Made by a program: the position numbers and the translations under genes. From a plasmid: a stretch of 64,000 bases of DNA. Location of the stretch: sequence record NZ_CP135254.1; one strand, written 5' to 3'. A model generated the notes under the pieces. That model ran no database searches. It was not told where the DNA came from and saw only the letters and a list, made by a program, of their open reading frames with translations. Numbering within the stretch: position 1 is the stretch's first letter; every line of letters begins with the position of its first letter. Positions 35,061 through 57,147 of the stretch are shown in pieces.

Positions 35061-35076
35061 AGTGCACCTTTAAGAC

Positions 35077-39709: not shown

Positions 39710-39943
39710 ATGGAAAAACGTATGACCGTAAAAGCTTTCATCACACGCCTGTCAGCCTTCCCTGAAGAGACACTCTGCTGCGGGACATTCTGGCTGGCTG
39801 ATGACTTTCTGGCGCTCGACAGCACCCTCACTGAAGACGATATTGATGCTGCAATGGAGTGGGCACAGGACAGCCATGATGCGAATGACGGATTTAACTG
39901 GAGCCACCTGCAGGCGGCAATCGATGAGGTGAAGCGCGTATGA
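39710..39943 (+). CDS. hypothetical acidic protein
   Basis: ORF; stop overlaps the next start (ATGA). Confidence 0.4.
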   Translation: MEKRMTVKAFITRLSAFPEETLCCGTFWLADDFLALDSTLTEDDIDAAMEWAQDSHDANDGFNWSHLQAAIDEVKRV

Positions 39944-40367: not shown

Positions 40368-40648
40368 TGGGGGATGAACCTGCCACCCGCTGCCAGTGTC
40401 TCGCGTCCGGTCTGATACGGGACGGGCGGTTTTTCCGCTCCGGCCCGGCGCCGCTGGTATTTTGCGCCAGCCCCTCGCCACGTTAAGGAACGCCCTTCAA
40501 GCCGCTTTCGCGGCATATCCTTGCCGCCATAAAAACTGACGGCTGCGGTATTCCACGGTCGGCCTGACCCGTGACCGGACGCGATGAACAGGCAGCGTGC
40601 GGCAGGGAACGGTATCGCGGTGATGCCTCCTGCCCCCTCTGACTACAG
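40368..40648 (+). repeat. family 1 repeat copy c
   Basis: Alignable to copies a and b; directly upstream of the methyltransferase. Confidence 0.4.
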
Positions 40649-40658: not shown

Positions 40659-41360
40659 ATGTCCAGATTCATTCTCGGAAACTGTATTGATGTGATGCGC
40701 GGATTCCCCGACCGCGCCGTTGACCTCATTGTGACCGATCCGCCTTACCTGGTCGGTTTTAAGGACCGTTCCGGACGGGCTATTGCCGGGGATGTGACGG
40801 ACGAATGGCTGCAACCGGCCACGCTGGAGATGTACCGCGTCCTCAAAAAAGACGCGCTGATGGTCAGTTTCTATGGCTGGAACCGCGTCGATCGTTTTAT
40901 GGCGGCATGGAAAGCGGCAGGATTCTACGCTGTGGGCCAGATTGTGTTCACCAAAACCTATGCCTCCAACCGCCGTAACGCTAAGGTCAGGCGCGGATTC
41001 GTGGACTACTGCCATGAAGGGGCTTATGTCCTCGCTAAAGGGCGCCCGGTGCCACCCGAAAAACCGCTGCCGGACGTGCTGCCGTTTCCTTATACCGGCA
41101 ATCCGCTGCATCCCACCCAGAAACCGGTGGAGGCTCTGCAACCGCTGATTGAGTCATTCAGCGCCCCGGGGGCGATTGTCCTTGACCCCTTTGCCGGCAG
41201 CGGTTCGACCTGTGTCGCCGCATACCGTGCCGGACGTCGCTATATCGGCATCGAAGTGCTGGCGCAGTACCACAGAGCCGGAGCCGGACGACTGGCCGCC
41301 ATGCACCGGGCCGTTAATACCCCGGCGGCGAACGATGAATGGCTCCCGGAGGCGGCGTGA
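40659..41360 (+). CDS. DNA methyltransferase (N6-A/N4-C, DPPY type), intact leading-region copy
   Basis: DLIVTDPPYL...; SD ACAGGAG before the ATG. Confidence 0.85.
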   Translation: MSRFILGNCIDVMRGFPDRAVDLIVTDPPYLVGFKDRSGRAIAGDVTDEWLQPATLEMYRVLKKDALMVSFYGWNRVDRFMAAWKAAGFYAVGQIVFTKTYASNRRNAKVRRGFVDYCHEGAYVLAKGRPVPPEKPLPDVLPFPYTGNPLHPTQKPVEALQPLIESFSAPGAIVLDPFAGSGSTCVAAYRAGRRYIGIEVLAQYHRAGAGRLAAMHRAVNTPAANDEWLPEAA

Positions 41361-41581
41361 TGAACTACGGCGGACACAAAGCCCTGCGCCGCAACATGGC
41401 CGGGCTGGCCAATAACCTGTGCGACCTGAAAACCACCCTGAAAGTGCTGGAAGAAACGTATCACTACCGGCATGACGAACTGCCGGAGCGACTTGCCGGA
41501 ATAAGCCTGCGGCGTATCAGCGTCCTGATGGATGAGGCATTCAATATCGCCCTGATGCTGGACGAAAGTTTTCAGGACTGA
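41360..41581 (+). CDS. hypothetical protein
   Basis: Start overlaps the methyltransferase stop (ATGA). Confidence 0.45.
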   Translation: MNYGGHKALRRNMAGLANNLCDLKTTLKVLEETYHYRHDELPERLAGISLRRISVLMDEAFNIALMLDESFQD

Positions 41582-41627
41582 CACCCGGGCGGTAAAGCCG
41601 CCCCCACTGGATCACGGAGAAATAACC

Positions 41628-42038
41628 ATGCTGTACGGCACCCGCAAAGAACTGAACAAAAAACTCAAACGCATGTTCGGCAACGAAGAACGTTACGCCC
41701 TGCTGGTCTGGACGAAAGAAGACGTGATGGCCCAGGCCTGGAACATGACGGAGGCCGAGGCTCACACCCTGCTTGAGCTTATCGGCCGCACGGGAACCGG
41801 GGAGCACACCGAAGAAGGCGTGTCATTCCGCACCGTGCAGGCGCTGTACGCCGGGATTCGCCCGGGCATTCCCCGCGTGAGCGTCCCCGTCGATACGCTG
41901 CATCGCATCACGGACATTGCCGCACAGGCGATTAACGGAGAAGACGAGCATTCGCCGTCCCTGACGGTCGATCACTACCCGAGTGTCGCTGACGCTCAGG
42001 CAGAAATCGCCTGGCTGAAACGCGAAATCGCCGCTTAA
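41628..42038 (+). CDS. hypothetical protein
   Basis: 136-aa ORF. Confidence 0.5.
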   Translation: MLYGTRKELNKKLKRMFGNEERYALLVWTKEDVMAQAWNMTEAEAHTLLELIGRTGTGEHTEEGVSFRTVQALYAGIRPGIPRVSVPVDTLHRITDIAAQAINGEDEHSPSLTVDHYPSVADAQAEIAWLKREIAA

Positions 42039-42089
42039 CCCGACCGCCCCGCTGAACGGCGGGGCGATATCACGCGAACTGAGACGACA

Positions 42090-42857
42090 ATGATGAAAAA
42101 TGAAACCCTTAACGCCCTTATCCTGCGCCACGGAGACCGGATGCTGCGTCAGTCTGGCTGGCCCGACGCCATTGATATGGCGCCCGTCGCACCCGGAACC
42201 GTACCCGGCTGGCTCGCCGCCTGCGGCTCTCTCAGCGGTACGCAAATCCTCACGCTGACAGAACAGCTTTGCCAGCCGCTGACGTATGGCCGGGCAGCGT
42301 TGTTGCTCGCCAGCGCCCGGCGGCTGGCGGGAACCCCGGCGCGTCTGCATCTCTTTCCGGTGCAGGCATATCCGCATCCGGAGCGGCTGGCTGACTGTCA
42401 GGTTATCCGCCTGCCTTACGCTCAGGAGTGGCTGACGGCAGCGGAATGTGACGATCTGCTGGCCTTCCTGAAAGCCTCCCTCACGCAGATAACGGAAATC
42501 GTGCGCCGGGATACGAAACGTATTGCTGCCGCGCTGGTGCCGTCCGCCGTCCCGCGCCTGATGGACAGGCGTTTCGGGGACTGGCGGTTGCTGGCCGACG
42601 AGTATGACCATGAAAACTGGCTGGACGCAGGCGAGACCGACAGGCTGGATCAGGTCCTTGATGCCATTCTGGTTCGCAGTGCGCGATTCTGCCCGGTCCT
42701 GCTCACCCTGGTAAATGAGCGGGAGGAAAACATGGAGGGCGCAGGGGTTATTACAGACCTGCTGCGTTTTCCGGGCGATCCGGTTCGCCGCTGGCTTGAT
42801 CGCCGCGTATTGCGGGACGTGGTGAGAGAGGCCCGCGGCGTCAGCGCTCTGGTGTGA
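42090..42857 (+). CDS. hypothetical protein
   Basis: 255-aa ORF. Confidence 0.5.
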   Translation: MMKNETLNALILRHGDRMLRQSGWPDAIDMAPVAPGTVPGWLAACGSLSGTQILTLTEQLCQPLTYGRAALLLASARRLAGTPARLHLFPVQAYPHPERLADCQVIRLPYAQEWLTAAECDDLLAFLKASLTQITEIVRRDTKRIAAALVPSAVPRLMDRRFGDWRLLADEYDHENWLDAGETDRLDQVLDAILVRSARFCPVLLTLVNEREENMEGAGVITDLLRFPGDPVRRWLDRRVLRDVVREARGVSALV

Positions 42858-43295
42858 CAGGCCCTTTCTGTGGGGGAGGGGAAACCTCCCCTTGTCTGCC
42901 TGCCGGCGCAGGAGGAACCGTGCGATAAGGATGTCCCCGTGCCGGCTCCGCGTTTACCCGGCCCGGCCTCCGGGCCTCTGGGATAAAAACCCGCCTCTGT
43001 TATCGCCGTGTCGTGTGCGGGCTGTGCCGTGCCTTCACTTTAGCCCGGCCGCTGCAGATGCAAGGGTGCGCTGACGCCGTCATCCTCGCCCGGTCGCAGT
43101 GTTTTTAATGAGTCTCGCCGTTCTTCCCGTCGTTTTCTCGCTCAGATTTCGCTCCAAAACCGTCCAGACCGGCTTCGCGCTTTATCTGCGCTGCGGCCTC
43201 CGGTGTCGCCCCTGCATCTTCCGCTTTTCGCCGGGCTGTCGTGTCGGCACGGCACCGCCCGGTGTCGCAGTCCATGTGATTACGGAGGTTTTACC

Positions 43296-43724
43296 ATGCA
43301 GTCTGTGAAAGCACGCCCCGTCCTGAATGTTGAAGAGTGTGACCGCCTGTCTTTTATGCCCTACATGTTCGGCAATGATTTTATGCTCGCTGAATTGCAG
43401 GTGTATGCACTGGCAAAAAAATGGATGCCCGAATATGAAGTCGAATTCTGGCACTTTATCCGGCTGCCTGAGGGCGGCGGTTACATGATGCCCGATTGTG
43501 GCCGCGTCCATATGGTCAGCACGGAAAGCTGGTTTGACCGCATTGTGAGCGCCGACGCGGCGGGCATTATTCTGACATCCCTGGCCGTTAACCGTCGTCT
43601 GGCGGCAAATCATGACAGCGGCAACCCGGCCCTGACTCACCTTTACATGCTGCGTGATGCCCAGCTCTGGAATCACATCACCCTTCACCCGGAATGCAAC
43701 GCCATTTACGCCGCGCTGGACTGA
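43296..43724 (+). CDS. klcA: KlcA/ArdB-family antirestriction protein
   Basis: SADAAGIILTSLA and C-terminal AIYAALD match KlcA (LSADAAGIVATL...AIYRAID). Confidence 0.8.
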   Translation: MQSVKARPVLNVEECDRLSFMPYMFGNDFMLAELQVYALAKKWMPEYEVEFWHFIRLPEGGGYMMPDCGRVHMVSTESWFDRIVSADAAGIILTSLAVNRRLAANHDSGNPALTHLYMLRDAQLWNHITLHPECNAIYAALD

Positions 43725-43768
43725 TTAACGACCGGGGCGGCCATGCCGCCCCGCAGGGAGACGAAAAA

Positions 43769-44275
43769 ATGAATTCATCAATTACGGTTCCGGCTGTCTA
43801 TGTGGGTACCTATCACCAGTACAACTGCGGCAGCATTTTCGGCAAATGGTTTGATTTAACCGATTTCGACGACGAAGACGCATTCTATGACGCCTGCCGG
43901 ACGCTGCACGCCGGCGAGGAAGACCCCGAGCTGATGTTTCAGGATATCGAGGGCATTCCGTCACAGTTTGCCTCTGAATCCTCTGTTAAGTGGGCGTTTA
44001 TTGAGGCCTTCCGGCAGGCGCAGGACGACGGGCGCCCCGCCGCGTTTGTGGCCTGGGCAGAGTATACCGGCGAGTGCGACTATGACGCCTTTGATGACGC
44101 GTACTACGGCGAAGCGGAAAGTGAGGAAGATTTTGCTTATGGCTTTGTGGAGGACAACGGCCTGTTAAACGAGGTGCCCGAATCATTGCGCATGTATTTC
44201 GATTATGAGGCATACGCGCGGGATTTATTCAGCAGCGGGTATGTGCTCCATGACGGTTATGTCTTCAGAAACTGA
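43769..44275 (+). CDS. ardA: ArdA antirestriction protein (DNA mimic)
   Basis: PAVYVGTYHQYNCGSIFGKWFDLTDFDDEDAFYDACRTLH...WAEYTGECDYDAFDD signature. Confidence 0.9.
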   Translation: MNSSITVPAVYVGTYHQYNCGSIFGKWFDLTDFDDEDAFYDACRTLHAGEEDPELMFQDIEGIPSQFASESSVKWAFIEAFRQAQDDGRPAAFVAWAEYTGECDYDAFDDAYYGEAESEEDFAYGFVEDNGLLNEVPESLRMYFDYEAYARDLFSSGYVLHDGYVFRN

Positions 44276-44317
44276 ATGATGTCCGGCGGGGAAGCCCGCC
44301 GGTTAAGGAAAATACGT

Positions 44318-44509
44318 ATGAAACTTGCACCACAAAGCCGTGAGATCCTGCGCCAGTACAAAGCCCTGATAAATGCCCGCCGCCGGGATGCCGGGCAGCG
44401 GGAACTGACCACCGCCCAGGTAATGGACGAAATCTGCTATTACATGACCTGTCAGTGTGCCGTCTACATCGGCGGACACTTCATCTTACAGGGCGGTAAA
44501 GGACAGTAA
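44318..44509 (+). CDS. hypothetical small protein
   Basis: ORF with a short RBS spacing. Confidence 0.35.
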
Positions 44510-44655
44510 TCAGTAAGTTCGATGACAGGCGTCCGGGCCGGAGGGCGCCTGTCTGCCCGCGCCCAAAACCCTGGCAGGCTGCGCCTGCCGGAGAGAAACG
44601 TCGCCGCGCCTCCGGCGCCGCTCGCTCTCTTCTCCGTTCTCAGTCGCTGAAGTCT

Positions 44656-44973
44656 GTGAATGCGCGTATTATCCACAATAGCTTTCTGGAAAACGTTGCA
44701 GGTGCAGATTTGTCAAAATGGAATATCGCCTCATTCTCAAAAGACGAGCAGGATAAAGTCTCTGTCGATAAAGCGGCCGCCGCTGTTGCATGGCAGGAAC
44801 GCATGAACAAGCCTGTTGTTCACGAACTCGTTGAACGGGAGCAGCCTGAACATCTGCGCGAATATTTTCGTGAACGGCTCCGCGTACATCGACTGAACAG
44901 TCAGCAGCTGCCCCGCGCCAATGCGCCCGAATACCAGAAGCCGGAAGACGGTGGCAGTGAGAGTAAGCCTTAA
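44656..44973 (+). CDS. hypothetical protein
   Basis: 105-aa ORF. Confidence 0.4.
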
Positions 44974-44997
44974 TTTTTTTCCCAGGGAGGGACTGCG

Positions 44998-45318
44998 GTG
45001 CGTATGTCTGCTTTATTTGCTCTGACGTCTGTGTTCAGCGCGTTGAATCTTGTATTTATGCCATTCCATCCCGTCATGATGTTATGGGCTTTCGGCCTCT
45101 CTGTCGCCTTCATTATTGTCAATATAATTGCCGACAGACTGCGTCTGTGGTCCGGTATTGCATGGGGAATGGCTGCCGCCGTAATAGTCGCTTTTATGCT
45201 TAACGGCGCACAGCCCGATGAAGAAAACCGGGTACTCATCAGTTCATTCGCATGTATTGTCTCAGCATGGTATGCCGTGATTCAGTTCAGAAAAGAGAAG
45301 AAAGAGTCTCTGTCCTGA
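44998..45318 (+). CDS. hypothetical membrane protein
   Basis: 3 predicted TM segments. Confidence 0.4.
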   Translation: MRMSALFALTSVFSALNLVFMPFHPVMMLWAFGLSVAFIIVNIIADRLRLWSGIAWGMAAAVIVAFMLNGAQPDEENRVLISSFACIVSAWYAVIQFRKEKKESLS

Positions 45319-45384
45319 CCGGTATTCTTTCTGTCTCTGCCTCTTCCGCTGCCTCTTCCTCATTTACTTTTCACACAATCTGCC

Positions 45385-45950
45385 ACAGGGCCACCTTCGG
45401 CTCCCGACCCGCTGGCGCGGTTCAGTCGTCGAGCCACACTCCGCTAACCGCGAAAGGATGCGGTAAGCTCCGCCGAACCCGCCAGGCGGTTTCGGGCTAT
45501 CGCTAGTGTCTGATGTCTGAGGTCAACGGCAGGCTTGCAGCATCCCTGTCAGGATGCGCCGCCCCTTTTACGCGCCGTCACCTGCGCTTTTCGCACCCCG
45601 GCAAACGGCCGCCGGGCTGTAAGGCGCAACGCCGTTTCGCGCCCGCGCGTTTCGTCGTTGCGGCGGGTTCCTGCTCATTCCTTGCCTGGTTTTTTCACCC
45701 CTTTGAGTCCATTCGCCGGGGCTGAGACAAGCACAGTCGCTGTCAGCCGTCCAGGGTAAATGACACGCGGTAAACCGCGCCCTGGACATCTGCCATCGCC
45801 GGTGCTCGTTTACGCCCTTGCGGCGAACGGCTCTCAAACGGGTGAAGGTAACAACCAGGGGGAACAGAGCAGCAGGTCCCCGCAAAACGTCAAAACCGCG
45901 GCCCCGGCAACTCAACGGGTGACGGTTTTTAAAGGCAAAACAACAGAGTA
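45385..45950 (+). repeat. family 2 dispersed repeat copy A (Frpo/ssi-like single-strand promoter element) upstream of ssb
   Basis: ~570 bp; conserved core ...CCACCTTCGGCTCCCGACC...GTCGAGCCACACTCCGCTAACCGCGAAAG...TGTCTGATGTCTGA(G/C)GTCAACGGCAGGCTTGCAGCATCC...; shared with 50610..51195 and 52885..53490. Confidence 0.5.
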
Positions 45951-45962
45951 AGGAGATTCATC

Positions 45963-46520
45963 ATGGCAGCACGTGGCGTTAATAAAGTCATTCTGGTCGG
46001 ACATCTGGGGCAGGACCCGGACGTGCGTTATATGCCCAACGGCGGCGCAGTGGCAAACCTGACGCTGGCCACGTCCGAAACATGGCGTGATAAGCAGACG
46101 GGAGAGATGCGCGAAAACACCGAATGGCACCGTGTTGTCATGTTCGGCAAGCTCGCGGAAGTGGCGGGAGAATACCTGCGTAAAGGCGCGCAGGTCTACA
46201 TCGAGGGCCAGATGCGTACCCGTAGCTGGCAGGACGATACCGGCGCCACGCGCTACGTCACCGAGGTGCTGGTCGGGCAGAGCGGCACCATGCAGATGCT
46301 CGGCGGTCGTCGTGGAACCGGTGAGCCTGAGAGTGCTGCGCCGCAGCAGCCCCCGCAGCCGCAGAGTCCTGCCGCCCCGGCTCAACCTGCTCAGGCCCCG
46401 GCTAAATCCCCGAAAGCGAAGGGCGGTAAAAAAGGCCGTCAGAGCGCCGCCCCGTCTCAGCTTCCTCCCCAGACTTTCCCGGACGATTACCCGCTGACCG
46501 ATGACGATGTGCCCTTTTAA
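45963..46520 (+). CDS. ssb: plasmid single-stranded DNA-binding protein
   Basis: [44 protein letters not shown]...; C-terminal DDDVPF. Confidence 0.95.
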
Positions 46521-46887
46521 ACCATGATGAATACGCCCCGCTCAGGCGGGGCAGAAAAGGAGAAACACATGGACCACAACGTTTTGTCCCCCCTTGAATC
46601 CCTGCCGGATGGCACATTCACCCGTAGTCAGGCGCAGGCGGTCGCGGCGCAGTATCAGAATGTGGCGATTGAAGATGACCAGGGGACCCATTTTCGCCTT
46701 GTCGTCCGTCATCAGGATGACGGCAGCATGGTCTGGCGCGTCTGGAATTTTGAACCGGGCGGTGAGTTCCTGATGAACCGTTACATCCGGGACTACGGAG
46801 TACGTAAAACGCAATAAGCCGTAAGAGGTGCCGGACAGGGTGGACTGTCCGGCAGACAGTCATCAATAATCTGAAGGAGTATTAACT

Positions 46888-48888
46888 ATGTCAGTGACCG
46901 AGTCTAAAACAAAAACCCCCGCGAAAACCAGCAAAAAAGCGGTGAAACCTGCCGAATCCGCCGCCCTGAAAGCCGCGCTTGAGGCCGCACAGATTGAGAT
47001 GGTGCCGCTGTCGGCGCTGGTCAAATCCCCGCTTAACGTCCGCACTATCCCGTATCCGCCGGAGAGTGTCCGGGAAATGGCTGACTCCATTCTCGCGGTC
47101 GGCCTCATTCAGAATCTGGTGGTTCATACCCTGCCTGATGGCCTTTCAGGTGTGGCGGCGGGCGGTCGTCGTCTGGCGGCCCTGCAGCTTTTACAGCGCG
47201 AGCAGCGCATCGGTGCCGGGCATCAGGTCATCGTGAAGCGCGTCAGCGACGAACTGGCGGTGGTGGCTTCGATGGTCGAGAACAATAACCGGGTGGCGAT
47301 GCACCCGGCAGAGCAAATCAGCGGTTTCCGCACGCTGTCTGAGCAGGGCAAGACCCCGGCGCAAATCGGGGACCAGCTGGGGTACAGTTCGCGCCACGTC
47401 CAGCGCATGCTGAAGCTCGCCAGCCTTGCCCCGGAACTGATTGCCCTGCTGGCAGAGAACACGCTCGACGTGGAGCAGTGTCAGGCCCTGAGTCTGGAAA
47501 GCGACCCGGCGCGTCAGGTGGAGATTTACCAGCGCGTGAAAGCGCAGCACAGCTACGCCCCCGCTCATATGCTTAAACGCGCCATCACGGACACCGAAAT
47601 ATCGGTTCGCGACGCCCGCTTTGTGTTTGTCGGACGCGAAGCGTATGAGGCCGCAGGGGGCGGGGTGCGCGAGGATCTGTTCAGCGCCCAGGAGGGCGAC
47701 GGAACGGCAGACGGGGTGCTGGTTGAACGTCTGGTACAGGAGAAGCTGGAGTCCGCCGCGCTGACTATTGAGATGCAGGAGGGCTGGTCATGGTCACTGG
47801 CTCGGGAAGGGGCTGTGCGGAACTACGGTGGCGACCGGGAGCATTATCTGGTGCTGCCGGAGCCGGAGGGCGAACTCAGCGCTGACGAGCAGCAGCGCCT
47901 CAATGAACTGTACGCCACGCAGGAAGCCACAGAAACATTTGAGGATGAAGCCGCCATTCAGGTGCTGATTGACGAGATTGAATATGCCGCATCGGTCCGG
48001 GCATGGACACCGGAGCAGAAAGCGGCCTGTGGCGTGGTGGTCAGCCTGTGTGATGGTGAGCTTCGTATCCAGCGCGGTGTGCAGAAGAAGGTGCAGGAGG
48101 TGGTCGCTGACGGACAGGAAAGTACGGGCGCTCAGGCCTCCCTGCATGTGGTCGCCAGCAGTACCCCGGATGTGGCAGAGGGTATCAGTGTGCCGCTTCT
48201 GAAAAAAATGTCCTCCGAAAGAACGCTGGCGGTACAGGCGGAACTGGTCCGGCAGCCACAGAAAGCCGTGGCCCTGATGGTCTGGCGGCTGTGCAGTTGC
48301 GTGTTCCACTACTGTATCACCACCCGGCACCCGTTTGTCCTGCGTCTTGAGGTCCACCACAGCGGCCTCACCAGCGAAGCCCCGACCGGAGAAAACGGTC
48401 AGGCATGGCAGTCTCTGATGCAGGAGAAAGCACGTCTGGAGGCGCTGCTGCCGGAGGGCTGGAAGACGGATTTCACCACCTTCTTTGCCCTCGACGGACA
48501 GACCCTCATGTCGCTGATGGCCTTCTGTACTGCCTGTTCCGTGGATGGTGTCCAGACCCGCGAACACGGACATACCAGCCGCAGTGACCTTGACGGTGTC
48601 GAGGCTGCGCTCGGGTTCCACCTGCGCGACTGGTGGCAGCCAACAGCAGATAACTTCCTCGGGTTACTCAGCAAAAATCAGATTGTGGCGGCGCTGAACG
48701 ACGCCGGACTGACCGGAGCCGCCTCGGATGCTGAAAAAATGAAGAAGGGCGATGCCGCCACTCACGCCGAACAGTGGCTCTCCGGGACCCGATGGGTGCC
48801 GGGATGGATGCAGTCCCCGGATGCCGCAACGCCGGACGATGCACAAACCACACCTGACACTGACGAACCGACTTCCCACGCTGCCTGA
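46888..48888 (+). CDS. ParB-like nuclease-domain protein (leading-region YubM-type)
   Basis: N-terminal ParB/Srx fold (LVKSPLNVRTIPY...GGRRLAALQLL); 666 aa. Confidence 0.8.
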   Translation: MSVTESKTKTPAKTSKKAVKPAESAALKAALEAAQIEMVPLSALVKSPLNVRTIPYPPESVREMADSILAVGLIQNLVVHTLPDGLSGVAAGGRRLAALQLLQREQRIGAGHQVIVKRVSDELAVVASMVENNNRVAMHPAEQISGFRTLSEQGKTPAQIGDQLGYSSRHVQRMLKLASLAPELIALLAENTLDVEQCQALSLESDPARQVEIYQRVKAQHSYAPAHMLKRAITDTEISVRDARFVFVGREAYEAAGGGVREDLFSAQEGDGTADGVLVERLVQEKLESAALTIEMQEGWSWSLAREGAVRNYGGDREHYLVLPEPEGELSADEQQRLNELYATQEATETFEDEAAIQVLIDEIEYAASVRAWTPEQKAACGVVVSLCDGELRIQRGVQKKVQEVVADGQESTGAQASLHVVASSTPDVAEGISVPLLKKMSSERTLAVQAELVRQPQKAVALMVWRLCSCVFHYCITTRHPFVLRLEVHHSGLTSEAPTGENGQAWQSLMQEKARLEALLPEGWKTDFTTFFALDGQTLMSLMAFCTACSVDGVQTREHGHTSRSDLDGVEAALGFHLRDWWQPTADNFLGLLSKNQIVAALNDAGLTGAASDAEKMKKGDAATHAEQWLSGTRWVPGWMQSPDAATPDDAQTTPDTDEPTSHAA

Positions 48889-48928
48889 TAACGGAGACGC
48901 CGCCCTGCGGGGCGGCGATAAGGAGACT

Positions 48929-49363
48929 ATGATGCGCAATGTTATTACCCCCGATGTCCTGAAAACCATGATCCCACAGGAATACGAAGACTGGCGCGAA
49001 GGAGGGGAGGATTTGCGCCGCGAACTGACCCATGCCGTGATGCGTGACCTGAACTGCCCGGATAACTGGGACATGAACGGGGAGTACCGCAGCGAGTTCG
49101 GGGGCTTTTTCCCGGTACAGATCCGCTTCACGCCTTCACACGGTAACTATCATCTCGCCGTGTGCAGTCCCGGTGATATCTCTCCGGCCTGGATGGTGGT
49201 GTTTGTCCCCGCCAGTGGTCGTCCGTTCTCGGTTATCAGCACCCTGTCTGACTGGTCGCCGGAAGCGATCAGCCACACGCTGAGTCTGGTTGCCCGGCTC
49301 GATACCGATGGCTACAGTCAGGCCAGCATCATCAGCATGCTGGTCATGGAGGGCGCGCAGTGA
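48929..49363 (+). CDS. psiB: PsiB (plasmid SOS inhibition protein B)
   Basis: QEYEDWREGGEDLRRELTHAVMRDLNCPDNWDMNGEYRSEFGGFFPVQIRFTP matches PsiB; SD AAGGAG before the ATG. Confidence 0.9.
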   Translation: MMRNVITPDVLKTMIPQEYEDWREGGEDLRRELTHAVMRDLNCPDNWDMNGEYRSEFGGFFPVQIRFTPSHGNYHLAVCSPGDISPAWMVVFVPASGRPFSVISTLSDWSPEAISHTLSLVARLDTDGYSQASIISMLVMEGAQ

Positions 49364-50088
49364 ACGCATCAACAACGTCTCTGGTGACCCTGAAGCCAGC
49401 CCGACAGGCAGCGCTGCAGGCGGTCCTGTCCGTGGAGGAATCCCGCCGTCTCGGTGCGCGTCTGCCCGCCATGCCATACGTGCGCACCTTCCTGCGTCTG
49501 CTGACCGGGAACAGCCGCATGAACACGACCGTGGCACAGCGCATTCCCGGCCTCAACTGGGACCCGAAGCATCGCCTGAGCAGCCTCAAACAGGTGGAGG
49601 AGGCGCTTGATGAACTGATTGCCAGCCACGGGGAGTGCTGCCCGCTGCCGCTGCCGGTGGATGTCCAGGCTGAACTGTTCCCGGAGGTGCTGCACACCCG
49701 GACTGAACGCCGGTTGCAGCGCAGAAACATCGCGTTCACCCGCAGGATGCGCCGGGAAGAACGGACGCTGGCGCATCACTGGCGGCTGCGGCAGAACCTG
49801 CTGGGGCAGGCCGTCACGGAGCTGAACTTTCAGTCCCCGGAGACGGTCAGCAGCTGGTACCGCCGGTGGGCCGAAGAGTTTGACGCGCGCGAGCTGGAGC
49901 CGGCTTTCTGGCACTGGCGGTCGCGGTTTACCTCGCTGGCGTCCCTGGACTGGCTGCGTGACGCGAAGGAACCGCTGTACGGTGTCATTCATGAAATCGG
50001 CTTCATTGTGCGTGACACCCCGGAGGCTGTGCGTCAGGCAGAGCGCTGGCAGGTGCCGAACAAGCTCACAGACCGGAGGCGGGGATGA
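49360..50088 (+). CDS. psiA: PsiA
   Basis: 242 aa immediately after psiB with an overlapping start. Confidence 0.85.
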   Translation: MNASTTSLVTLKPARQAALQAVLSVEESRRLGARLPAMPYVRTFLRLLTGNSRMNTTVAQRIPGLNWDPKHRLSSLKQVEEALDELIASHGECCPLPLPVDVQAELFPEVLHTRTERRLQRRNIAFTRRMRREERTLAHHWRLRQNLLGQAVTELNFQSPETVSSWYRRWAEEFDARELEPAFWHWRSRFTSLASLDWLRDAKEPLYGVIHEIGFIVRDTPEAVRQAERWQVPNKLTDRRRG

Positions 50089-50408
50089 GGTGGCGTTACT
50101 CCCTGCGCTGGAAATTACCATCACCGTGTCCCGGTCCGCATGAACTGGCATCCGAAGTGGTGGAGGCCGGACAGCCTGCGCCCGAATCCATTATGTCGCT
50201 CTGGGTGGCGGGCGCCGGGTATGCGGTGTGCGTGGATTTTCCCGATGAGCGGCAGATTAAGCGCTGGAGCGATGAGCGCAAAGCCGCTGCGCGTCGAAGG
50301 AATCTTGAGCGGCGGGTCAACAAAATAGCGCCTCTGTTTGCTGATGAGCTGATAGATCGGGAGCTTGAGAGGCGACCAGACTATTTCCGGGGAAAATCTC
50401 AGACCTGA
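50085..50408 (+). CDS. hypothetical protein
   Basis: Start overlaps the psiA stop. Confidence 0.4.
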   Translation: MRWRYSLRWKLPSPCPGPHELASEVVEAGQPAPESIMSLWVAGAGYAVCVDFPDERQIKRWSDERKAAARRRNLERRVNKIAPLFADELIDRELERRPDYFRGKSQT

Positions 50409-50609
50409 ATCTGGTTAAGCACGGTTGAGGCGTGCATCGATGTGGAGCCTGCGACATCTGACAGACAAAGTGCACAAAGTCGGATAGAGAGAGGAGCGCT
50501 GACGCGCCCCTCTTTTTCCTGGCACTTCATTATCGCCCTCAAATCCTTTGCCTCTCTGATATTGCTTTCTGACAGCGTGAGTATCGCTGTTTCTTTCTGG
50601 CAGGCCTGA

Positions 50610-51195
50610 CCAGGGGACACCTTCGGCTCCCGACCGCTACGCGTCCGGTCGTCGAGCCACACTCCGCTAACCGCGAAATGACGCGGTAAGCTCCGCCGAA
50701 CCCGCTCGCGGTTTCGGGCCTGCCGGCTAGTGTCTGATGTCTGACGTCAACGGCAGGCTTGCAGCATCCTTGTCAGGATGCGCCGCCCTTTTACGCGCCG
50801 TGACCTGCGCTCCCTGCATCCCGGCAAAAAAAACGCCGGGACGTAAGGCGCAACGCCGTTTCGCTCGTCGCGCCCCGTCGTTGCCGGGGTGCCTGCCCTG
50901 GTGCTCCGTGCGCCTTTCACCGTTTAAGCCCCTTCGCCCGGGAATATCCCGCCACAAACCGCCTGGCTGTCCAGTACCGCTGATGCTCTCCGGCGACATT
51001 TTTTGCCGAAAACCCGACAAATAATGTCGCCTCCGTACCGGACATCTGCACCGGCCCGTGTCTGTTCTTTCCCGTTGCGGCGAAGGTTCTCAAACGGGTG
51101 AGGTTCACAACCCGGAAACAACCGGCAGCCACCCCACGAAACGTCAACACCGCGACGAATGAAACTCAACGGGTGATGTTCTTTAAAAATCAGGA
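50610..51195 (+). repeat. family 2 repeat copy B
   Basis: Aligned to copies A and C. Confidence 0.5.
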
Positions 51196-51203
51196 GGAAA
51201 AAA

Positions 51204-51431
51204 ATGCAGACACAGGCGATGCGTGTTTATCAGATCACATTTACCGGACGCGATGCAAAAGGCGTTATTCCGATGTTTACCCGCGTGAAAGCCATGACCG
51301 GAAAGGGCGCGATTAAGGCGTTTATTGAGCGTTACAAACCTGTTCAGGGCTGGTTTCTGGGCGATCCCGAAGACATTACCGACAACGTGCAAAAGGAGGC
51401 AGAAGAAGCAGAGAGCAAAACGCAGAGATGA
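51204..51431 (+). CDS. hypothetical protein
   Basis: 75 aa; SD AGGAGG. Confidence 0.45.
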   Translation: MQTQAMRVYQITFTGRDAKGVIPMFTRVKAMTGKGAIKAFIERYKPVQGWFLGDPEDITDNVQKEAEEAESKTQR

Positions 51432-51523
51432 AAAAAGCCGGGTAAACCCGGCTTGTTCCACGCCGCAGAAATCGCAGCAACGATTTTTTGCGGCTTCATT
51501 AACTACCAAAGGAAGTTAACTCA

Positions 51524-51754
51524 ATGATCCTTTCTATTGTTTCACCGTCTGACGGCGCTGTAAAGCCCCGCCGTCATTCCCGCATCCCCCGCGTCGATAT
51601 TCCCGCACCGGAAATTGACCCCACGCTCAGGGCATTCGGGCGGCATATCGCAAAAAGCATACGCAAGGGGCGTGGTGTTCACATCCCCGCGATGAAAAAC
51701 GCCGATTTTGGTCAGGTGCTCCGCACCCTCGAACTGACACGCGCATTTAACTAA
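51524..51754 (+). CDS. small hypothetical protein (paralog of 54329..54559)
   Basis: ~70% identical to the 54329 product (AVKPRRH.RI.R.DI.A.EIDP.L.AFGRHIA.SIRKGRGVHIPAM.N..FGQVLRTLEL.RA.N). Confidence 0.5.
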   Translation: MILSIVSPSDGAVKPRRHSRIPRVDIPAPEIDPTLRAFGRHIAKSIRKGRGVHIPAMKNADFGQVLRTLELTRAFN

Positions 51755-51802
51755 CCAGGTGAGCCGCTCCGAAAGGGGCGGCAACAGCAGAAGGAGGACA
51801 TC

Positions 51803-52678
51803 ATGAATCACACCACCACACAGGCTGTCAGCGTCGACATTACCCCCCATAGCGGCGCGGGAGAGGTCATCCCGTCTTTGCCCGTCGAGCGCATTGTGGC
51901 GCAGCGTAACAGTGGCGTGGCGGCTTTTCTGGAAGCCATAAGGCTGCTACGTGACGCGCAGAAACTCATTTTTGAAGCATCCGGGCGCGGGTGGATCTCA
52001 GGCATGACCGAAATCATCGAACGCAGCCTGTCAGCCGACTGCAGCACCACGCGGGAAGCCGCCTTAAAACGCAGTATCTGCCGTTATGCCGATCGCGACA
52101 TCTGGACGCGCCTGATGAATGACACGGGCATGTTTACGCTGATGAGCGAGGCGCAGCGCAAGGAGTGGGACACGCAGCTCTACAGCGACGACTGCCCCGA
52201 AATCACACTCGACAACGTGATCGCCACGTTCCGGGCGCTTAACGCCAGCAAGGGAGAAACGTTTGAGCAGGGCGTGATTGACGTGTTCCGCAACCTCTCA
52301 TGGGACTATAAAACGCATAACCCGTGCTTTCTGGGAAAAAAAATTATCATTGATGGTGTCCTGGATAATCATCGCGGGCTGTATTTTTCCGTGCGCACGT
52401 ATGCACAGAACCGCATCGATGACCTTGCCCGCCCGTTCTGGATCCTCGACGGAAAGACCATACCCGACAATCGCGTCTCCGAGGGGGCAAACCTGAGCGC
52501 GTTTATCAGTCAGGGCGGTGCGAAGAGCGTGGGGGAGGTGTTTACGTGCGAGTATTTCACAGTACGCACATACAAAAAAGGCTCCGCGCACGTCACCTTT
52601 ACCCGGCCCGACCTGGTGGAGAAGGTGAACGACATTATCGCGCGGCACTATCCGGGGGCGCTGCCGCCGGTGGTCTGA
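51803..52678 (+). CDS. hypothetical protein, 291 aa
   Basis: ORF with an SD; no recognised motif. Confidence 0.55.
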   Translation: MNHTTTQAVSVDITPHSGAGEVIPSLPVERIVAQRNSGVAAFLEAIRLLRDAQKLIFEASGRGWISGMTEIIERSLSADCSTTREAALKRSICRYADRDIWTRLMNDTGMFTLMSEAQRKEWDTQLYSDDCPEITLDNVIATFRALNASKGETFEQGVIDVFRNLSWDYKTHNPCFLGKKIIIDGVLDNHRGLYFSVRTYAQNRIDDLARPFWILDGKTIPDNRVSEGANLSAFISQGGAKSVGEVFTCEYFTVRTYKKGSAHVTFTRPDLVEKVNDIIARHYPGALPPVV

Positions 52679-52884
52679 TGCACTGGCGGGGGACTCGTTC
52701 CCCCGTCACTGTCTGACCGCCCGCCGAAAACCTGCCTGCGGCGCGTGGCAGGGCTGCGCTGACGCGCCGCCACGGCCACTCTGTCACAGATTTGGTATCT
52801 CTGTTTCGGGCTGACTCTGGCTGTTCTGCTGATATCTTCCCCTGTTCCATTCTCTCTTCTGCTGTTTCTTTCTGACAGGCCAGA

Positions 52885-53490
52885 CCCGGGGACACCTTCG
52901 GCTCCCGACCGCTGCGCGTCCGGTCGTCGAGCCACACTCCGCTAACCGCGAAAGGACGCGGTAAGCTCCGCCGAACCCGCCAGGCGGTTTCGGGCCTGCC
53001 GGCTAGTGTCTGATGTCTGACGTCAACGGCAGGCTTGCAGCATCCGTTCCGGATGCGCCGCCCCTTTTACGCGCCGTCACCTGCGCTTTTCGCACCCCGG
53101 CAAACTGACGCCGGGCTGTAAGGGGCAACGCCGTTTTCGCTGCCGCTTCTCCGACGTTGCGGCGGGTTCCTGCTCTTTCCTTACCTGGTGCCGTTTCACC
53201 CCTTTGAGTCCTTTCGCCGGGGCTGAGACAAGCACAACCCGTCTTGCCGTCCATGCACTGCTGGCGCACGGCCATAAAAACTTTTTGCCTGAATCCGCAA
53301 AAACTTTTCACGTCCGGCATGGACGGCTTCACCGGGCCGTGCTCGTTTACGCCCTTGCGGCGAACGGCTCTCAAACGGGTGAAGGTAACAACCAGCGGAG
53401 CAGAGCAGCAGGTCCCCGCAAAACGTCAAAACCGCGGCCCCGGCAACTCAACGGGTGACGGTTTTAAAACCTCAAAGTCAGAAAAAGGAA
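52885..53490 (+). repeat. family 2 repeat copy C
   Basis: Aligned to copies A and B. Confidence 0.5.
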
Positions 53491-53497
53491 AACACTC

Positions 53498-53836
53498 ATG
53501 AATACCCGCATCGTTCATTCCATATCGTCCGTTCTGCGTACTGATGGCTTTGTGCGCAACATCCACGCCGCTAACCCGTTCGATGTTATCCGCGCCGATG
53601 TGGTGCTGGCACGCATCGAGAAAGAGGCGGGGCGCTGCTGCGGGATGCATTACGAGCTGTATCAGGCGCGCGTGCTGGGCGATGCGCTGGATTATCTGGG
53701 CGCGCTGCCGCTGAAAGACCGCCCGGCATTCATGGGTGCGGCGGCAAAACGTGGGTATCTGCTGACGTTAGCCGAAGAAGAGTGTGCGCAGGAAGCCCGC
53801 GATGTGCTGCTGAGTGAACTGGCGGCAAACGAGTAG
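53498..53836 (+). CDS. hypothetical protein
   Basis: 112-aa ORF. Confidence 0.5.
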   Translation: MNTRIVHSISSVLRTDGFVRNIHAANPFDVIRADVVLARIEKEAGRCCGMHYELYQARVLGDALDYLGALPLKDRPAFMGAAAKRGYLLTLAEEECAQEARDVLLSELAANE

Positions 53837-53890
53837 ACAACCCCGGATGGCGGCATGTAGCTGCCATCCCTTAACCCGAAGGAGAAAACC

Positions 53891-54238
53891 ATGCACTTAC
53901 ATCTCACCGAATCCTCAGCCCGTCCGGGAATGCAGGTCACAGCAGAAGCCGAGCGCGAATACTGGCTGAGTCGCCAGAAAGCAGCGGTGAAAGCGCCCGC
54001 TGAAATCGATGTTCACGCCTTCCATGATGCGCTGGGTCTGATGTACCCGCTCAACTGGTCAACGAGTGAGAGCGGTGGCTGGGAGACGTTCATGCTGCAG
54101 GAAATGGTCTGTGGTGACGTGACAGAGATTTATGCCCGCTACGGAGCCAGATATTTCCGGCTGCGGGATGTGTGCAACCTGAGCCATGCGCAGATTAAAA
54201 CGCGCATTAAGGAGGAATTTAACCTGTTCCGGAAATGA
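53891..54238 (+). CDS. hypothetical protein
   Basis: 115-aa ORF. Confidence 0.5.
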   Translation: MHLHLTESSARPGMQVTAEAEREYWLSRQKAAVKAPAEIDVHAFHDALGLMYPLNWSTSESGGWETFMLQEMVCGDVTEIYARYGARYFRLRDVCNLSHAQIKTRIKEEFNLFRK

Positions 54239-54328
54239 AAAAAGCAGGGAAAACCCTGCTTTATCCACGCCGTAAAAGTCGCGGGAACGATTTTTTCGGC
54301 TTCACATACACGATATATGGAGGTCTGT

Positions 54329-54559
54329 ATGACCCTGACTATTCTTTCACCTTCCACTGAGGCTGTAAAGCCCCGCCGTCACCAGCGCATTCTGCGCGAT
54401 GACATCGCCGCGCGGGAGATTGACCCGGCGCTGAAAGCCTTCGGACGGCATATTGCCCGGAGCATTCGCAAGGGGCGCGGCGTCCATATCCCGGCGATGA
54501 ACAACACCGCCTTCGGGCAGGTGCTCCGCACGCTTGAACTCAAACGCGCATGTAACTGA
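54329..54559 (+). CDS. small hypothetical protein (paralog of 51524..51754)
   Basis: See the paralog. Confidence 0.5.
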   Translation: MTLTILSPSTEAVKPRRHQRILRDDIAAREIDPALKAFGRHIARSIRKGRGVHIPAMNNTAFGQVLRTLELKRACN

Positions 54560-54605
54560 TAAGGTGAGCCGCTCCTTCGGGAGCGGCAACAGCGGAGGTA
54601 ATTGT

Positions 54606-55439
54606 ATGTCGCAGCTGAGTTTTGCCGATGTGTTCAACATGGCCAGAGAAACCGCTGAGAATAGCCCTGTGATCCAGGTCAGGGCGCAGGTCGCGGAAGT
54701 GGTGCCTTCTGTTCAGCGTTTGATGAGTGAGCAGCACAGCCGGAGCCGGTTTATCCACGTGTTTAAAGACACGGGTCGCCATCTGGGACGCTGGGAGGTG
54801 TTCAGTGATTTTCTGTCACTGGCCGCCAGTGAACTGGATATGGCCCGGATAAGAGCGCCGGAAAGCATTGAGCACTGCCGGAAAATCTGCGCGCGTTATG
54901 AGGCGTCAGATATCGCGAAGATGCAGGAGATGTTCTGCATGATGGTGTGCGCACTGGAGGCTAAATTTCATGATTTCCTCGGCGCCATTTTCATGGTGCT
55001 TGAGCTGGGCGATAACTTTCGCGGGCAGTATTTTACCCCATATCCGGTCCAGTCCCTCATGGCCCGGATGCTGATGCCGGGCGTCAGGGACACTATCCGC
55101 CGGGAAGGGATAGCCACGGTCAGCGACCCGGCCTGTGGTGCCGCCGGGATGCTGATTGCGTATGCGGAGTGCCTGCTTGAGGCAGATATCAATCCTTCCA
55201 TGCACATGTTCGGCAGCTGCATCGATATCGATCCGGTGGCGGCGGATATGGCATTCATCCAGCTGTATGTGCTGGGAATAGCCGCCGAAGTGGTGACGGG
55301 GAACACGCTGACGATGCAGATCCGGCGGGTAAGATACACCCCCGTGTATTATCTCAATGAGTTCGAAAAACGTCTGGCAGACCAGAACCGATACCGGGCT
55401 ATGCTGGAGTTTATGCGCGGAATACCGGAGGCTGCGTAA
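54606..55439 (+). CDS. HsdM-like N6-adenine methyltransferase fold lacking catalytic motif IV (possible decoy/antirestriction protein)
   Basis: Motif X/I RGQYFTPYPVQSLMARMLMP...DPACGAAGMLIAY. Motif II/III-like FGSCIDIDPVAADMAFIQLYVLGI. No NPP(F/Y/W) before the stop. Confidence 0.55.
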   Translation: MSQLSFADVFNMARETAENSPVIQVRAQVAEVVPSVQRLMSEQHSRSRFIHVFKDTGRHLGRWEVFSDFLSLAASELDMARIRAPESIEHCRKICARYEASDIAKMQEMFCMMVCALEAKFHDFLGAIFMVLELGDNFRGQYFTPYPVQSLMARMLMPGVRDTIRREGIATVSDPACGAAGMLIAYAECLLEADINPSMHMFGSCIDIDPVAADMAFIQLYVLGIAAEVVTGNTLTMQIRRVRYTPVYYLNEFEKRLADQNRYRAMLEFMRGIPEAA

Positions 55440-55699
55440 ATAACCGGAAGGGCAGGGGATAACCTGCCCGACTGCGGAAAAAAGGCCGCGCACCTGCGGT
55501 GCAGACTAATACCGGCTGCGCTACGCGCCGCCCGTATTAGTCCGTCGCGGGTTTCTCTCTTCATTAATATTTATTTGTCACTGTTATATTTCATCCGGCA
55601 TCCTGCTGTTTATCTCTTCTGGTATTTACCCTTTGCGCTGAAAATAATAAAAACTGGTCCGGGCGTCGTCCCTGGCGGGACACGGCTGTCGTGAACAGA

Positions 55700-56085
55700 G
55701 CCAGCAAGCTGTCTCTGCCCGGCCCTTCGGTAAACCTCCGGGCAGCGGGCTTCCATCCTGACGCAAATTCAAAATTGCGCTTGCTGCATCCTTATCAGGA
55801 TGCGCCGCTGTCACCGTGGCGATAAATACCCGCCACTCTGATGGCCGGAACGTGAATTCGATAAAGACCGAATTGGCGTTCCGGGTTGTGTGCATGCTCA
55901 CCCCCGCGCTATATCGCCCGACATCATCTTTTCGCGGAGGGCGGCTTTTAGCATCAGCCGTGGCGAAAATAAAGGGGTATATAAACGCTTCGCGCCCCTT
56001 TATTTCCTCCCCGTCGGCTGCAAATTGCCCTTTGCCGCTCAGTGATGAAGTCGAACGATTTAATAAACCGCGAAGGAGAAGTTCA
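55700..56085 (+). repeat. degenerate partial family 2 element upstream of the second klcA-like gene
   Basis: Core GCTTGCTGCATCCTTATCAGGATGCGCCGC matches the family 2 GCTTGCAGCATCC(C/T)TGTCAGGATGCGCCGCC. Confidence 0.3.
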
Positions 56086-56087
56086 GC

Positions 56088-56630
56088 ATGCACACAATTA
56101 ACGTCAACACCAAGGTCAACACCGCCACTCGTGAATCAGACGAACAATTTAAAACAGACAAATATCTGCGTTATGCAGTGACCGATGGTGATGAGCGTCT
56201 GGATTTTATCCCGGCCCTCTTTTTTACGCCGTCAGCAGATAATATGGCGGCTAGCTGGTTACGCCAGCACTCCGATTACGACGGTGGTTTCTGGTCTTAC
56301 TGGATCATTCCGCAGGGTGTCGGCGGAAATATCACGCCTAATCGCATCCAGTTCATCACTACGCAGACCGGGTATATCGCACCGGAAGGAAAACAGTCTT
56401 ACAGGATGCGCATCCCCGGCAATTATTTTGACGGTGACGTCAGCGCCGATGCTGCAGGAATTATTGCTACACTAATGATAATGAACTGGCTGTCATGGCA
56501 AGTGGCTGATATGGGACCGGAATATGCCCGCGTCTGTAAATATCTTGTTTCCCGTCAGGATGCGCTGAAAGATTATCTCAGCATTATTCATCATCCCGAA
56601 CGGCATTTAATCTGGCGGGCGATAGACTAA
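56088..56630 (+). CDS. KlcA/ArdB-family antirestriction protein, divergent paralog
   Basis: DVSADAAGIIATLMIMNWL and C-terminal HLIWRAID match the KlcA signature. Confidence 0.6.
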   Translation: MHTINVNTKVNTATRESDEQFKTDKYLRYAVTDGDERLDFIPALFFTPSADNMAASWLRQHSDYDGGFWSYWIIPQGVGGNITPNRIQFITTQTGYIAPEGKQSYRMRIPGNYFDGDVSADAAGIIATLMIMNWLSWQVADMGPEYARVCKYLVSRQDALKDYLSIIHHPERHLIWRAID

Positions 56631-56652: not shown

Positions 56653-57147
56653 TCATTCATGAGGTCTTTCGTTTTTAACCAGCCGGGATTGTCCGGCATT
56701 TTTATTTGCCTTGATGGCCCGGTAGATAGCTTCAATCTTTCTGGCATATGCCAGTCGTCGCATGGCCTGCCTGTCCGTTCTGCGGAATCCTGCGTTGTAG
56801 GCACCGACTGCCTCCCAGCTGACGCCCCACTTCTTAAACGCCAGCGCCAGATAATACGCACCGGTATAAATATTCAGGCAGGCATCCGTCAGAAGATGTT
56901 CCGGTTTAATACCGAACTCCGATAACCGGGCATGGTGCTGCGAATCGATTTGCATCAGTCCGGCACCGTAGCCCGATCCCGGATTTTTTCCGATGGCATT
57001 CACCACCCATTTAGACTCCTGCCATGAAATAGCCCGGAGCAGATCCGGATCTATTTGATAATCCCGACCCGCCATATCAAAACAATCCGTAGCCCATGCA
57101 GGCGTGGATATTAAAAGCAGGGCGGCAAACGCCAGTTTTTTTCTCAA
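56653..57147 (-). CDS. lytic transglycosylase (F orf169/geneX-like, SLT domain)
   Basis: Signal peptide; ISWQESKW...GLMQI...AYNAG SLT motifs; adjacent to oriT. Confidence 0.85.

Follow-up and report, generated by a model that had tools for sequence, protein, structure and literature searches.

Hairpin elements related to single-stranded DNA promoters precede the gene blocks of the leading region of an IncFII-type Klebsiella conjugative plasmid

Frpo, a single-stranded DNA (ssDNA) promoter, was reportedly defined in the F plasmid by Masai and Arai in 1997. Its role in vivo and a second copy upstream of ssb were described in 2023 (Couturier; PMC9849209), anti-defence islands with Frpo-like promoters were reported across 21,907 elements, with 13,089 Frpo homologues (Samuel 2024, Nature, PMC11541004), and three promoter classes with mapped start sites were described in pESBL and reported to be conserved in F (NAR 2025, PMC12672017). 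One element, ssp2, is also a replication roadblock that is resolved by UvrD (bioRxiv 2026.01.09.698686). We analysed here a window of 64,000 nucleotides of a plasmid (sequence record NZ_CP135254.1), in which the stretch from 39.0 to 57.2 kb is the leading, that is first-transferred, region of an IncFII-type (MOBF/MPF_F) Klebsiella conjugative plasmid. It is highly probable that seven leading operons in this region are each driven, in the recipient, by an ssDNA promoter that forms as a hairpin on the transferred strand (T-strand); their activity, timing and shut-off would follow those established by experiments on F, ColIb-P9 and pESBL. Such an arrangement is already published in kind, since the principle, the element families and a closely similar Klebsiella island are known. 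The layout is that of ssi1-3 of ColIb-P9 and of classes 1-3 of pESBL, where dispersed hairpin promoters of three classes head the early leading operons (ssb/psiB, ardA/klcA, methyltransferase; PMC12672017). With the islands of Samuel 2024 the locus shares the clustering near oriT, the T-strand orientation, ArdA, KlcA, methyltransferases, SSB, PsiB, Frpo-like elements and a umuDC flank, and it holds three methyltransferase-type genes and two Antirestrict-domain proteins. The closely similar island is that of K. variicola pKp5-1 (CP008701.1; Samuel Extended Data Fig. 5d), which is collinear with the window and 81-86% identical to it over 39.0-50.0 and 53.9-57.3 kb. Its middle part differs, with hok-type and other genes where the window has the second of the three repeats described below (R2) with its operon, part of the third (R3) and the open reading frame (ORF) 53498. 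Whether a resistance plasmid gets through its first minutes in a new host depends on its leading region, and plasmids of the present type are carriers of KPC carbapenemase genes in clinical Enterobacterales. As a gene-rich instance of the published model, the window offers a test bed: it combines seven candidate ssDNA promoters, which fall into at least three classes, with about ten uncharacterised early genes.

F-like relaxases transfer the nicked strand 5' to 3', starting from just 3' of the nick. We located an R100-type nic-like site on the minus strand at 57248-57229, between an SLT gene (56653-57147, minus strand) and traM (57581, plus strand); its full sequence is TGCGTAGTGTGTGGTGATTT, with the nick between TGCGTAGTGTGT and GGTGATTT, and it differs at 3 positions from the F nic region, which is nicked between TGCGTGGGGTGT and GGTGCTTT, while none of 100 shuffles gave a match. 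Because the nic site is on the minus strand, the polarity of F-like relaxases makes this strand the T-strand, and therefore the template for all the leading genes of the plus strand. The initial annotation had reasoned in the same way, and the nic site bears it out: the minus strand enters from ~57236 toward lower coordinates. It had also placed every gene of the region on the plus strand, as is the case for all 25 credible genes in 39.0-56.6 kb, which have good Shine-Dalgarno sequences. On the other side of the nic site, the tra genes (traM, traY, traA, then others) begin at 57.6 kb on the plus strand, with FinP and the 5' untranslated region (UTR) of traJ at 58.1-58.2 kb. In the model that we favour, the minus strand would be nicked at ~57236/57237 and would enter the recipient 5' end first, and the leading genes would use it as template as it arrives. 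Before each of the seven operons, an element of 210-320 nt would form a long, imperfectly paired hairpin in the entering single strand; by homology with F Frpo1/Frpo2 (ssp1), ssp2 and ssp3, this hairpin would mimic a double-stranded sigma-70 promoter. The host RNA polymerase could then transcribe ssb, psiB/psiA, ardA, the klcA-type and methyltransferase genes, the HerB homologue and their uncharacterised neighbours before the complementary strand is made, and synthesis of that strand would remove the hairpins and switch the operons off.

Three of the elements are the class 1 (Frpo/ssp1-type) repeats R1 (45363-45950, core hairpin ~45638-45906), R2 (50586-51200, core ~50858-51165) and R3 (52861-53480, core ~53122-53441), given here on the minus strand. 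These direct repeats had been recognised in the initial annotation, with slightly narrower bounds than the 590-620 bp that we find, and each does stand immediately in front of a gene block as claimed there: R1-R3 end 4-18 nt before the ATG of ssb (45963), ORF 51204 and ORF 53498. Firstly, we compared the window by blastn with Supplementary Table 2 of Samuel et al. 2024, which gives known and candidate Frpo/ssi sequences in T-strand orientation. These queries match the minus strand of all three repeats, with E values from 5e-22 to 1e-119 for F ssiD, Frpo1 and Frpo2 and the Serratia and insect Frpo' candidates. Against F ssiD, the E values are 1.9e-27 for R1, 3.5e-24 for R2 and 5e-22 for R3; R2 and R3 are ~70-72% identical to it over 344 nt, and R1 is 83% (over 99 nt) and 74% identical to the two halves of ssiD. 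With the two copies of F (NC_002483), Frpo2 before ssb and Frpo1 before ygeA, identity is 69-72% over 426-441 nt; it reaches 78% between R3 and the Serratia Frpo'1 and 85.5% over 380 nt between R1 and Frpo'5 of an insect metagenome. The repeats are on the same strand relative to oriT as F Frpo1/Frpo2 (ssiD; ssp1a/ssp1b), and R1 likewise lies upstream of ssb. The IncI1 elements are far more diverged from R1-R3 than those of F, ColIb Frpo3 giving only a 25-nt exact match by blastn.

Secondly, we folded the repeats as ssDNA. The T-strand of each forms an imperfect hairpin of ~300 nt that is more stable than dinucleotide shuffles, with a folding free energy (dG) of -125.1 kcal/mol for R1 (z -8.23), -111 for R2 (z -6.44) and -127.8 for R3 (z -7.49). 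The core hairpins are less stable on the plus strand than on the T-strand (-86.9 vs -101.8 for R1, -73.7 vs -88.4 for R2, -82.8 vs -98.3 for R3), and this difference of 14-16 kcal/mol falls in the extreme 1% of 1500 windows taken from 30-60 kb. It is consistent with conserved G.T pairs, which become A.C mismatches on the other strand; the R2 core has 11 G.T pairs on the T-strand and 1 on the plus strand. Thirdly, we aligned eight class 1 sequences (R1-R3, F Frpo1 and Frpo2, the Serratia element and two insect elements). The long hairpin persists in the consensus fold, with changes on both sides in 13 of its 88 pairs and with several conserved G.T pairs. The strand bias in stability speaks for selection on the T-strand DNA fold rather than on mRNA or double-stranded DNA. 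As in the F elements, the long imperfect hairpin of R2 and R3 has an A+T-rich tip, which R1 and the insect Frpo'5 and Frpo'6 lack. Homology on the T-strand, stable T-strand hairpins and covariation support the Frpo/ssi assignment first proposed from the arrangement of the repeats.

The three repeats are 72-82% identical in global pairwise comparisons, and this identity is a mosaic: R2 and R3 agree at 96% over their 5' 120 nt, R1 and R3 at 96-98% over most of the 3' half, and R1 and R2 at 96% over a 67-nt block in the middle. The mosaic indicates gene conversion or recombination between the copies, which could also shuffle or delete the intervening operons. The repeats have a GC content of 0.61-0.62, compared with 0.58 for the island and 0.53 for the whole window. 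Beyond the Frpo-homologous hairpin, each class 1 repeat also conserves a distal module of ~180-200 nt (45363-45560, 50586-50770, 52861-53040), which forms a separate T-strand structure (dG -78 to -82 per 300 nt) and parts of which are also found in F, in the hairpin region beside oriT (R4, below) and in the Salmonella Frpo* candidates. This module could serve for priming, terminate the operon that precedes it, or have some other role.

We searched 30-60 kb by the mining procedure of PMC12672017, folding the T-strand in 300-nt windows with DNA parameters. Minima below -70 kcal/mol fall in seven large intergenic gaps and at two places inside or beside the GC-rich ORF 42090 (42.0-43.1 kb); the fold peaks at 42041-42600 were rejected as elements, as they lie inside this GC-rich ORF and have no strand bias. 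The minus strand has the more stable fold in all seven gap elements, with a margin of 3.5-15.8 kcal/mol over the plus strand. Each of the gaps of at least 383 nt in 39.0-57.2 kb (664, 383, 438, 644, 795, 819 and 648 nt) holds one element, and all other intergenic gaps in the island are of 200 nt or less. We then scanned for conventional double-stranded promoters by consensus. A plus-strand sigma-70-like site occurs in a single large gap, that of the element h39, where it lies at 39816-39844, after the hairpin and just before ORF 39940; conventional promoters were thus rejected as drivers of the operons, there being none on the plus strand in six of the seven gaps and the total number of sites equalling the expectation from shuffles. 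With one hairpin element per large gap and no other plus-strand promoter-like site in six of them, the region divides into seven operons, each headed by a hairpin.

Three of these elements, absent from the initial annotation, belong to the two other published classes. The hairpin h43 (43018-43261, minus strand; dG -66.6 vs -60.5 on the plus strand) lies upstream of klcA, and the segment 43004-43288 is 71% identical over 292 nt to F sequence that stops 9 nt short of the antirestriction gene of that plasmid; h43 is also 74% identical to Frpo'4 of Samuel et al. by blastn. F ssp2 has been placed upstream of the F antirestriction gene and is 86% identical to an insect-gut candidate of Samuel et al. 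(PMC13478746; bioRxiv 2026.01.09.698686), and h43 is assigned to class 2 (ssp2-type) because it is homologous to the F segment at the position described for ssp2. Class 3 (ssp3) elements lie just upstream of a methylase gene (PMC12672017), and so does h40 (40379-40606, minus strand; z -4.45, dG -79.8 vs -73.3), which is 80.5% identical to positions 53895-54114 of the F record, just upstream of the F methylase. A second class 3-type hairpin, h39 (39405-39641, minus strand; z -3.12), lies upstream of ORFs 39650/39940 and is an 88% direct repeat of the copy at 40386-40648; segments of both (40394-40612 and 39423-39642) are 80% identical to an F segment that ends ~50 nt before the F methylase. A match to Frpo*1 was also found by blastn among the comparisons of ssp2/ssp3-type elements. 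These assignments rest on homology together with the same position, upstream of klcA/ardB and of an M.EcoGIX-type methylase, in the same order as in F, where ssp2 and ssp3 were located by the positions described in the papers rather than by published coordinates. By these comparisons, the class 1 repeats are one of at least three known ssDNA-promoter classes with putative members in the island. The island is collinear with F. It differs in carrying three class 1 copies where F has two, and two class 3 copies where F has one; R1 has no tip, the R2 and R3 operons stand in place of the F flm and ygeA/ygeB genes, and an additional, unrelated hairpin (R4) and a klcA-like gene adjoin oriT. In the F record NC_002483, a coding sequence (CDS) for a 'hypothetical protein' at 53784-54089 overlaps the segment homologous to the ssp3-type hairpins and may be a hairpin element miscalled as a gene.

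The operons carry the known genes listed in the initial annotation, as Pfam and annotation identify ArdA, two KlcA-type proteins, ssb, psiB, psiA and a methylase. The first operon, behind h39, comprises ORFs 39650/39940. The second (40659-42857, plus strand, as are all that follow), behind h40, comprises the methylase gene (40659-41360), a homologue of the gene downstream of the F ssp3 element, then ORF 41360, a DUF1380 gene (41628) and ORF 42090. The third (43296-45318), behind h43, encodes the KlcA-type protein (43296-43724), ArdA (43769-44275), ORF 44318, a homologue of the theta subunit of Pol III (44710) and a membrane-like ORF (44998). The fourth (45963-50408), behind R1, contains ssb, a DUF905 gene (46569), a gene for a ParB-like protein (46888-48888), psiB, psiA and ORF 50085, and is collinear with ssb-yfjA-yfjB-psiB-psiA of F. 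The fifth (51204-52678), behind R2, consists of ORFs 51204 (75 aa) and 51524 (76 aa) and a gene for a DUF4942 protein (51803-52678); the sixth (53498-55439), behind R3, consists of ORFs 53498 (112 aa), 53891 (115 aa) and 54329 (76 aa) and a gene for a protein with an N6_Mtase domain (54606-55439), with intergenic gaps of 46-90 nt. The DUF4942 and N6_Mtase proteins were considered as paralogues and rejected as such, having no significant similarity. The seventh (56088-56630), behind R4, is a klcA/ardB-like gene (Pfam Antirestrict, 1.3e-16) whose product is 28% identical to the KlcA-type protein encoded at 43296; it is the first T-strand-templated gene to enter. DUF905, DUF1380, DUF4942, the theta homologue and the ParB-like protein are among the largest families of leading regions (Samuel et al., PMC11541004).

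At least 15 further ORFs had been put forward as unannotated candidates for new anti-defence functions. Four of them have recognisable domains: 41628 (DUF1380), 44710 (DNA_pol3_theta, 3.5e-35), 51803 (DUF4942) and 54606 (N6_Mtase). Ten have indeed no Pfam or NCBIfam family (41360, 42090, 44318, 44998, 50085, 51204, 51524, 53498, 53891 and 54329), three of these belonging only to PHROG families of unknown function, and none of the ten matched a known anti-defence family in Pfam, NCBIfam, PHROGs or in sequence and structure searches. Sequence searches of the PDB with 42090, 53498 and 53891 returned nothing. The family of 53891 is narrow (160 proteins, all from Enterobacterales plasmids) and its AlphaFold model is unusable (predicted local distance difference test, pLDDT, 55.6). 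ORF 42090 (42090-42857, plus strand; 255 aa) is present in many Enterobacterales plasmids and 39% identical to its F counterpart, and its AlphaFold model (pLDDT 80, mixed alpha/beta) has no significant relative among solved structures or viral predicted structures. A candidate anti-defence role for the family-less ORFs is reasonable, since leading regions are statistically enriched in anti-defence genes (PMC11541004), and a missing match says little about inhibitors that are small and evolve fast. The chances are nonetheless evenly balanced that most of the uncharacterised ORFs serve other functions in establishment, such as host reprogramming, handling of ssDNA, DNA modification, control of the SOS response and replication, or regulation. 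The ParB-like protein of the ssb operon is 51% identical to F YfjB, that is HerB, a CTP-binding ParB-like protein reported to act by reprogramming host transcription and not against a defence system (PMC13370423), so that leading genes are not all defence inhibitors; the theta homologue, SSB, PsiA and PsiB act on replication and the SOS response; and the two 76-aa proteins are small, basic, encoded before methyltransferase-like genes and predicted to be under antisense RNA control. The lack of any match to a known anti-defence family agrees with such other functions as well.

As for the hairpins themselves, several points weigh against their reading as promoters. Promoter activity is here a prediction from homology; the mapped start sites are those of pESBL. 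Hairpin stability by itself is expected of any inverted repeat, and h43 is only modestly more stable than its shuffles (z -2.85). The initial annotation had called for stable ssDNA hairpins that expose -35 and -10 boxes. The hairpins are there in R1-R3, and for the boxes a position-weight scan of the eight aligned elements and inspection of the hairpins gave three competing candidates, none of them a convincing -35/-10 pair with a good -10 in all copies. The first candidate is an invariant TTGAC(G/T) on the gene-proximal arm, downstream of which no -10 is conserved. The second, TTGAGA-N17-19 to TAAAC(G/C) over a conserved internal loop, reads CATCAC in F and AAAGAA in R2, and the third combines TGGACn on the distal arm, after N16-18, with hexamers resembling TGTCTC at the same internal loop. 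R2 is the weakest of the copies for these candidate boxes.

It has to be asked whether the repeats are mainly DNA-processing signals, either priming sites for the complementary strand ('ssi') or programmed replication roadblocks, that act as promoters incidentally, which we hold to be unlikely. The F Frpo came to light as a single-strand initiation signal, and DNA synthesis is primed from its transcripts (bioRxiv 2026.01.09.698686; PMC7736820), F ssp2 halts complementary-strand synthesis until it is resolved by UvrD (bioRxiv 2026.01.09.698686), and the structured distal module conserved over ~200 nt in each class 1 repeat has no assigned role. However, every element lies directly 5' of an operon, the operons have no other promoter-like site (the h39 gap apart), and processing and promoter roles are not mutually exclusive. 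That the repeats are scars of duplication or recombination, or ordinary double-stranded regulatory regions with conventional promoters that act after conversion to double-stranded DNA, is very improbable: their mosaic identity does reveal recombination or gene conversion between copies, but homologues of the experimentally active F elements are kept across Escherichia, Klebsiella, Serratia and insect-gut plasmids, a function in double-stranded DNA would not select the compensatory changes and the strand-biased stability, and six of the seven gaps lack a plus-strand sigma-70-like site.

The reading of the hairpins as ssDNA promoters extends to the element beside oriT, R4, in another form. It had been described as a degenerate fourth copy of the repeats, at ~55700, and this is correct for a short distal part only. 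In that part (55640-55885, minus strand), short class 1/F Frpo stretches accompany a second conserved small hairpin: positions 55658-55720 are 86% identical over 64 nt to the distal flank of F Frpo1/2, and positions 55779-55808 give a 30-nt match to R1/R2. The gene-proximal 212 nt (55886-56097, minus strand) form an unrelated hairpin that lies upstream of the oriT-proximal klcA-like gene and overlaps its ATG, a stem with the start codon in its base and a side hairpin. We therefore rejected R4 as a degenerate Frpo copy, since only ~60-110 nt of distal flank are common to both and blastn gave no match for the proximal hairpin in F or E. coli plasmids; at the sensitivity of blastn, it has no homology to F ssp1, ssp2 or ssp3. 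The T-strand is again the more stable (dG -58.1 vs -50.2 on the plus strand for the proximal hairpin; z -4.96 for a 531-nt fold). Full-length copies of the proximal hairpin are present in 713 plasmids, of the IncF type, from Klebsiella, Serratia, Citrobacter, Enterobacter and Pantoea, and all 713 copies lie directly before an 'antirestriction protein' gene and adjoin the SLT gene and oriT. Among six copies of 76-100% identity, 14 of 90 pairs have changed on both sides and T.G pairs are invariant. At the helix junction, the distal arm carries an invariant TTTATT-N17-TAAAAG, with TGc before TAAAAG, which lacks the usual final T of a -10 box. Were the distal arm the non-template strand, the start of transcription would fall near 56030, and the 5' UTR, of ~58 nt, would contain the ribosome-binding site (RBS).

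Two further features lie within the R2 and R3 operons, on the minus strand. They are matches to the antisense RNA AS-pc01 (Rfam RF02875), which is antisense to pHK01_035 of the IncFII plasmid pHK01. The first (51432-51529; 76.7 bits, E 4.6e-14) covers the RBS and ATG of ORF 51524, and the second (54239-54334; 61 bits, E 1.1e-08) covers those of ORF 54329; both span the whole RF02875 model, with scores that fall below its gathering threshold of 79. Each has its own promoter-like site with a TG extension (51564-51536, TTTACA-17-AACAAT, and 54369-54341, TTTACA-17-AAGAAT), and a strong intrinsic terminator follows these minus-strand sigma-70-like sites after ~100 nt (51454-51435 and 54262-54241). 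The RNAs fold with z scores of -5.2 and -5.9. Their target ORFs are paralogues, 76 aa each and 76% identical, small and basic, and precede the DUF4942 and N6_Mtase genes. Since the template of the antisense RNAs is the plus strand, which is absent until the complementary strand has been made, they could silence their targets only after conversion to double-stranded DNA. It is plausible that they help to silence the R2 and R3 operons at that stage, an ssDNA-operon shut-off that is our inference and not a described property of AS-pc01. We propose tentatively, and with less than even confidence, that the R4 hairpin (55886-56097) is a fourth class of ssDNA promoter and, together with this, that the AS-pc01-type RNAs are a built-in off-switch for two class 1-driven methyltransferase-type operons. 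The searched literature gave no "ssp4" or equivalent class, which is weak negative evidence, and neither the R4 class nor the pairing of AS-pc01 with an ssDNA operon was found in the searchable literature; both are possibly new.

Two RefSeq CDS lie wholly inside hairpin elements, at 53319-53501 (plus strand) in R3 and at 55626-56093 (minus strand) in R4, and are probably annotation artefacts. The latter is on the strand opposite to that of all the other leading genes.

The initial annotation placed the island at 41360-56630; its extent is larger, ~39.0-57.2 kb, bounded by umuDC and a group II intron. The stretch 41360-56630 is 100% identical in many IncFII-type MOBF/MPF_F plasmids of Klebsiella, Raoultella and Enterobacter, for example pKPC2_EClY2403, and parts of it are common to more than 5000 plasmid records. 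The segment 34000-41400, for its part, is matched at full length only by plasmid p3 of Klebsiella michiganensis BSI-KPN166 (NZ_CP102106.1). The group II intron (37001-38818, minus strand) separates umuD from the far end of the leading region; it has a reverse transcriptase/maturase ORF (37001-38488) and a D1-D4-6 domain recognised by Rfam (38593-38818, 186.6 bits), and among the plasmids searched its insertion is present only in the same p3. On the side far from oriT, the island is flanked by a umuC/umuD operon (35227-36926, minus strand), as has been seen beside many anti-defence islands (Samuel et al. 2024, PMC11541004). Just beyond umuC/umuD lies a RelE/ParE-Phd toxin-antitoxin pair (34526-35061).

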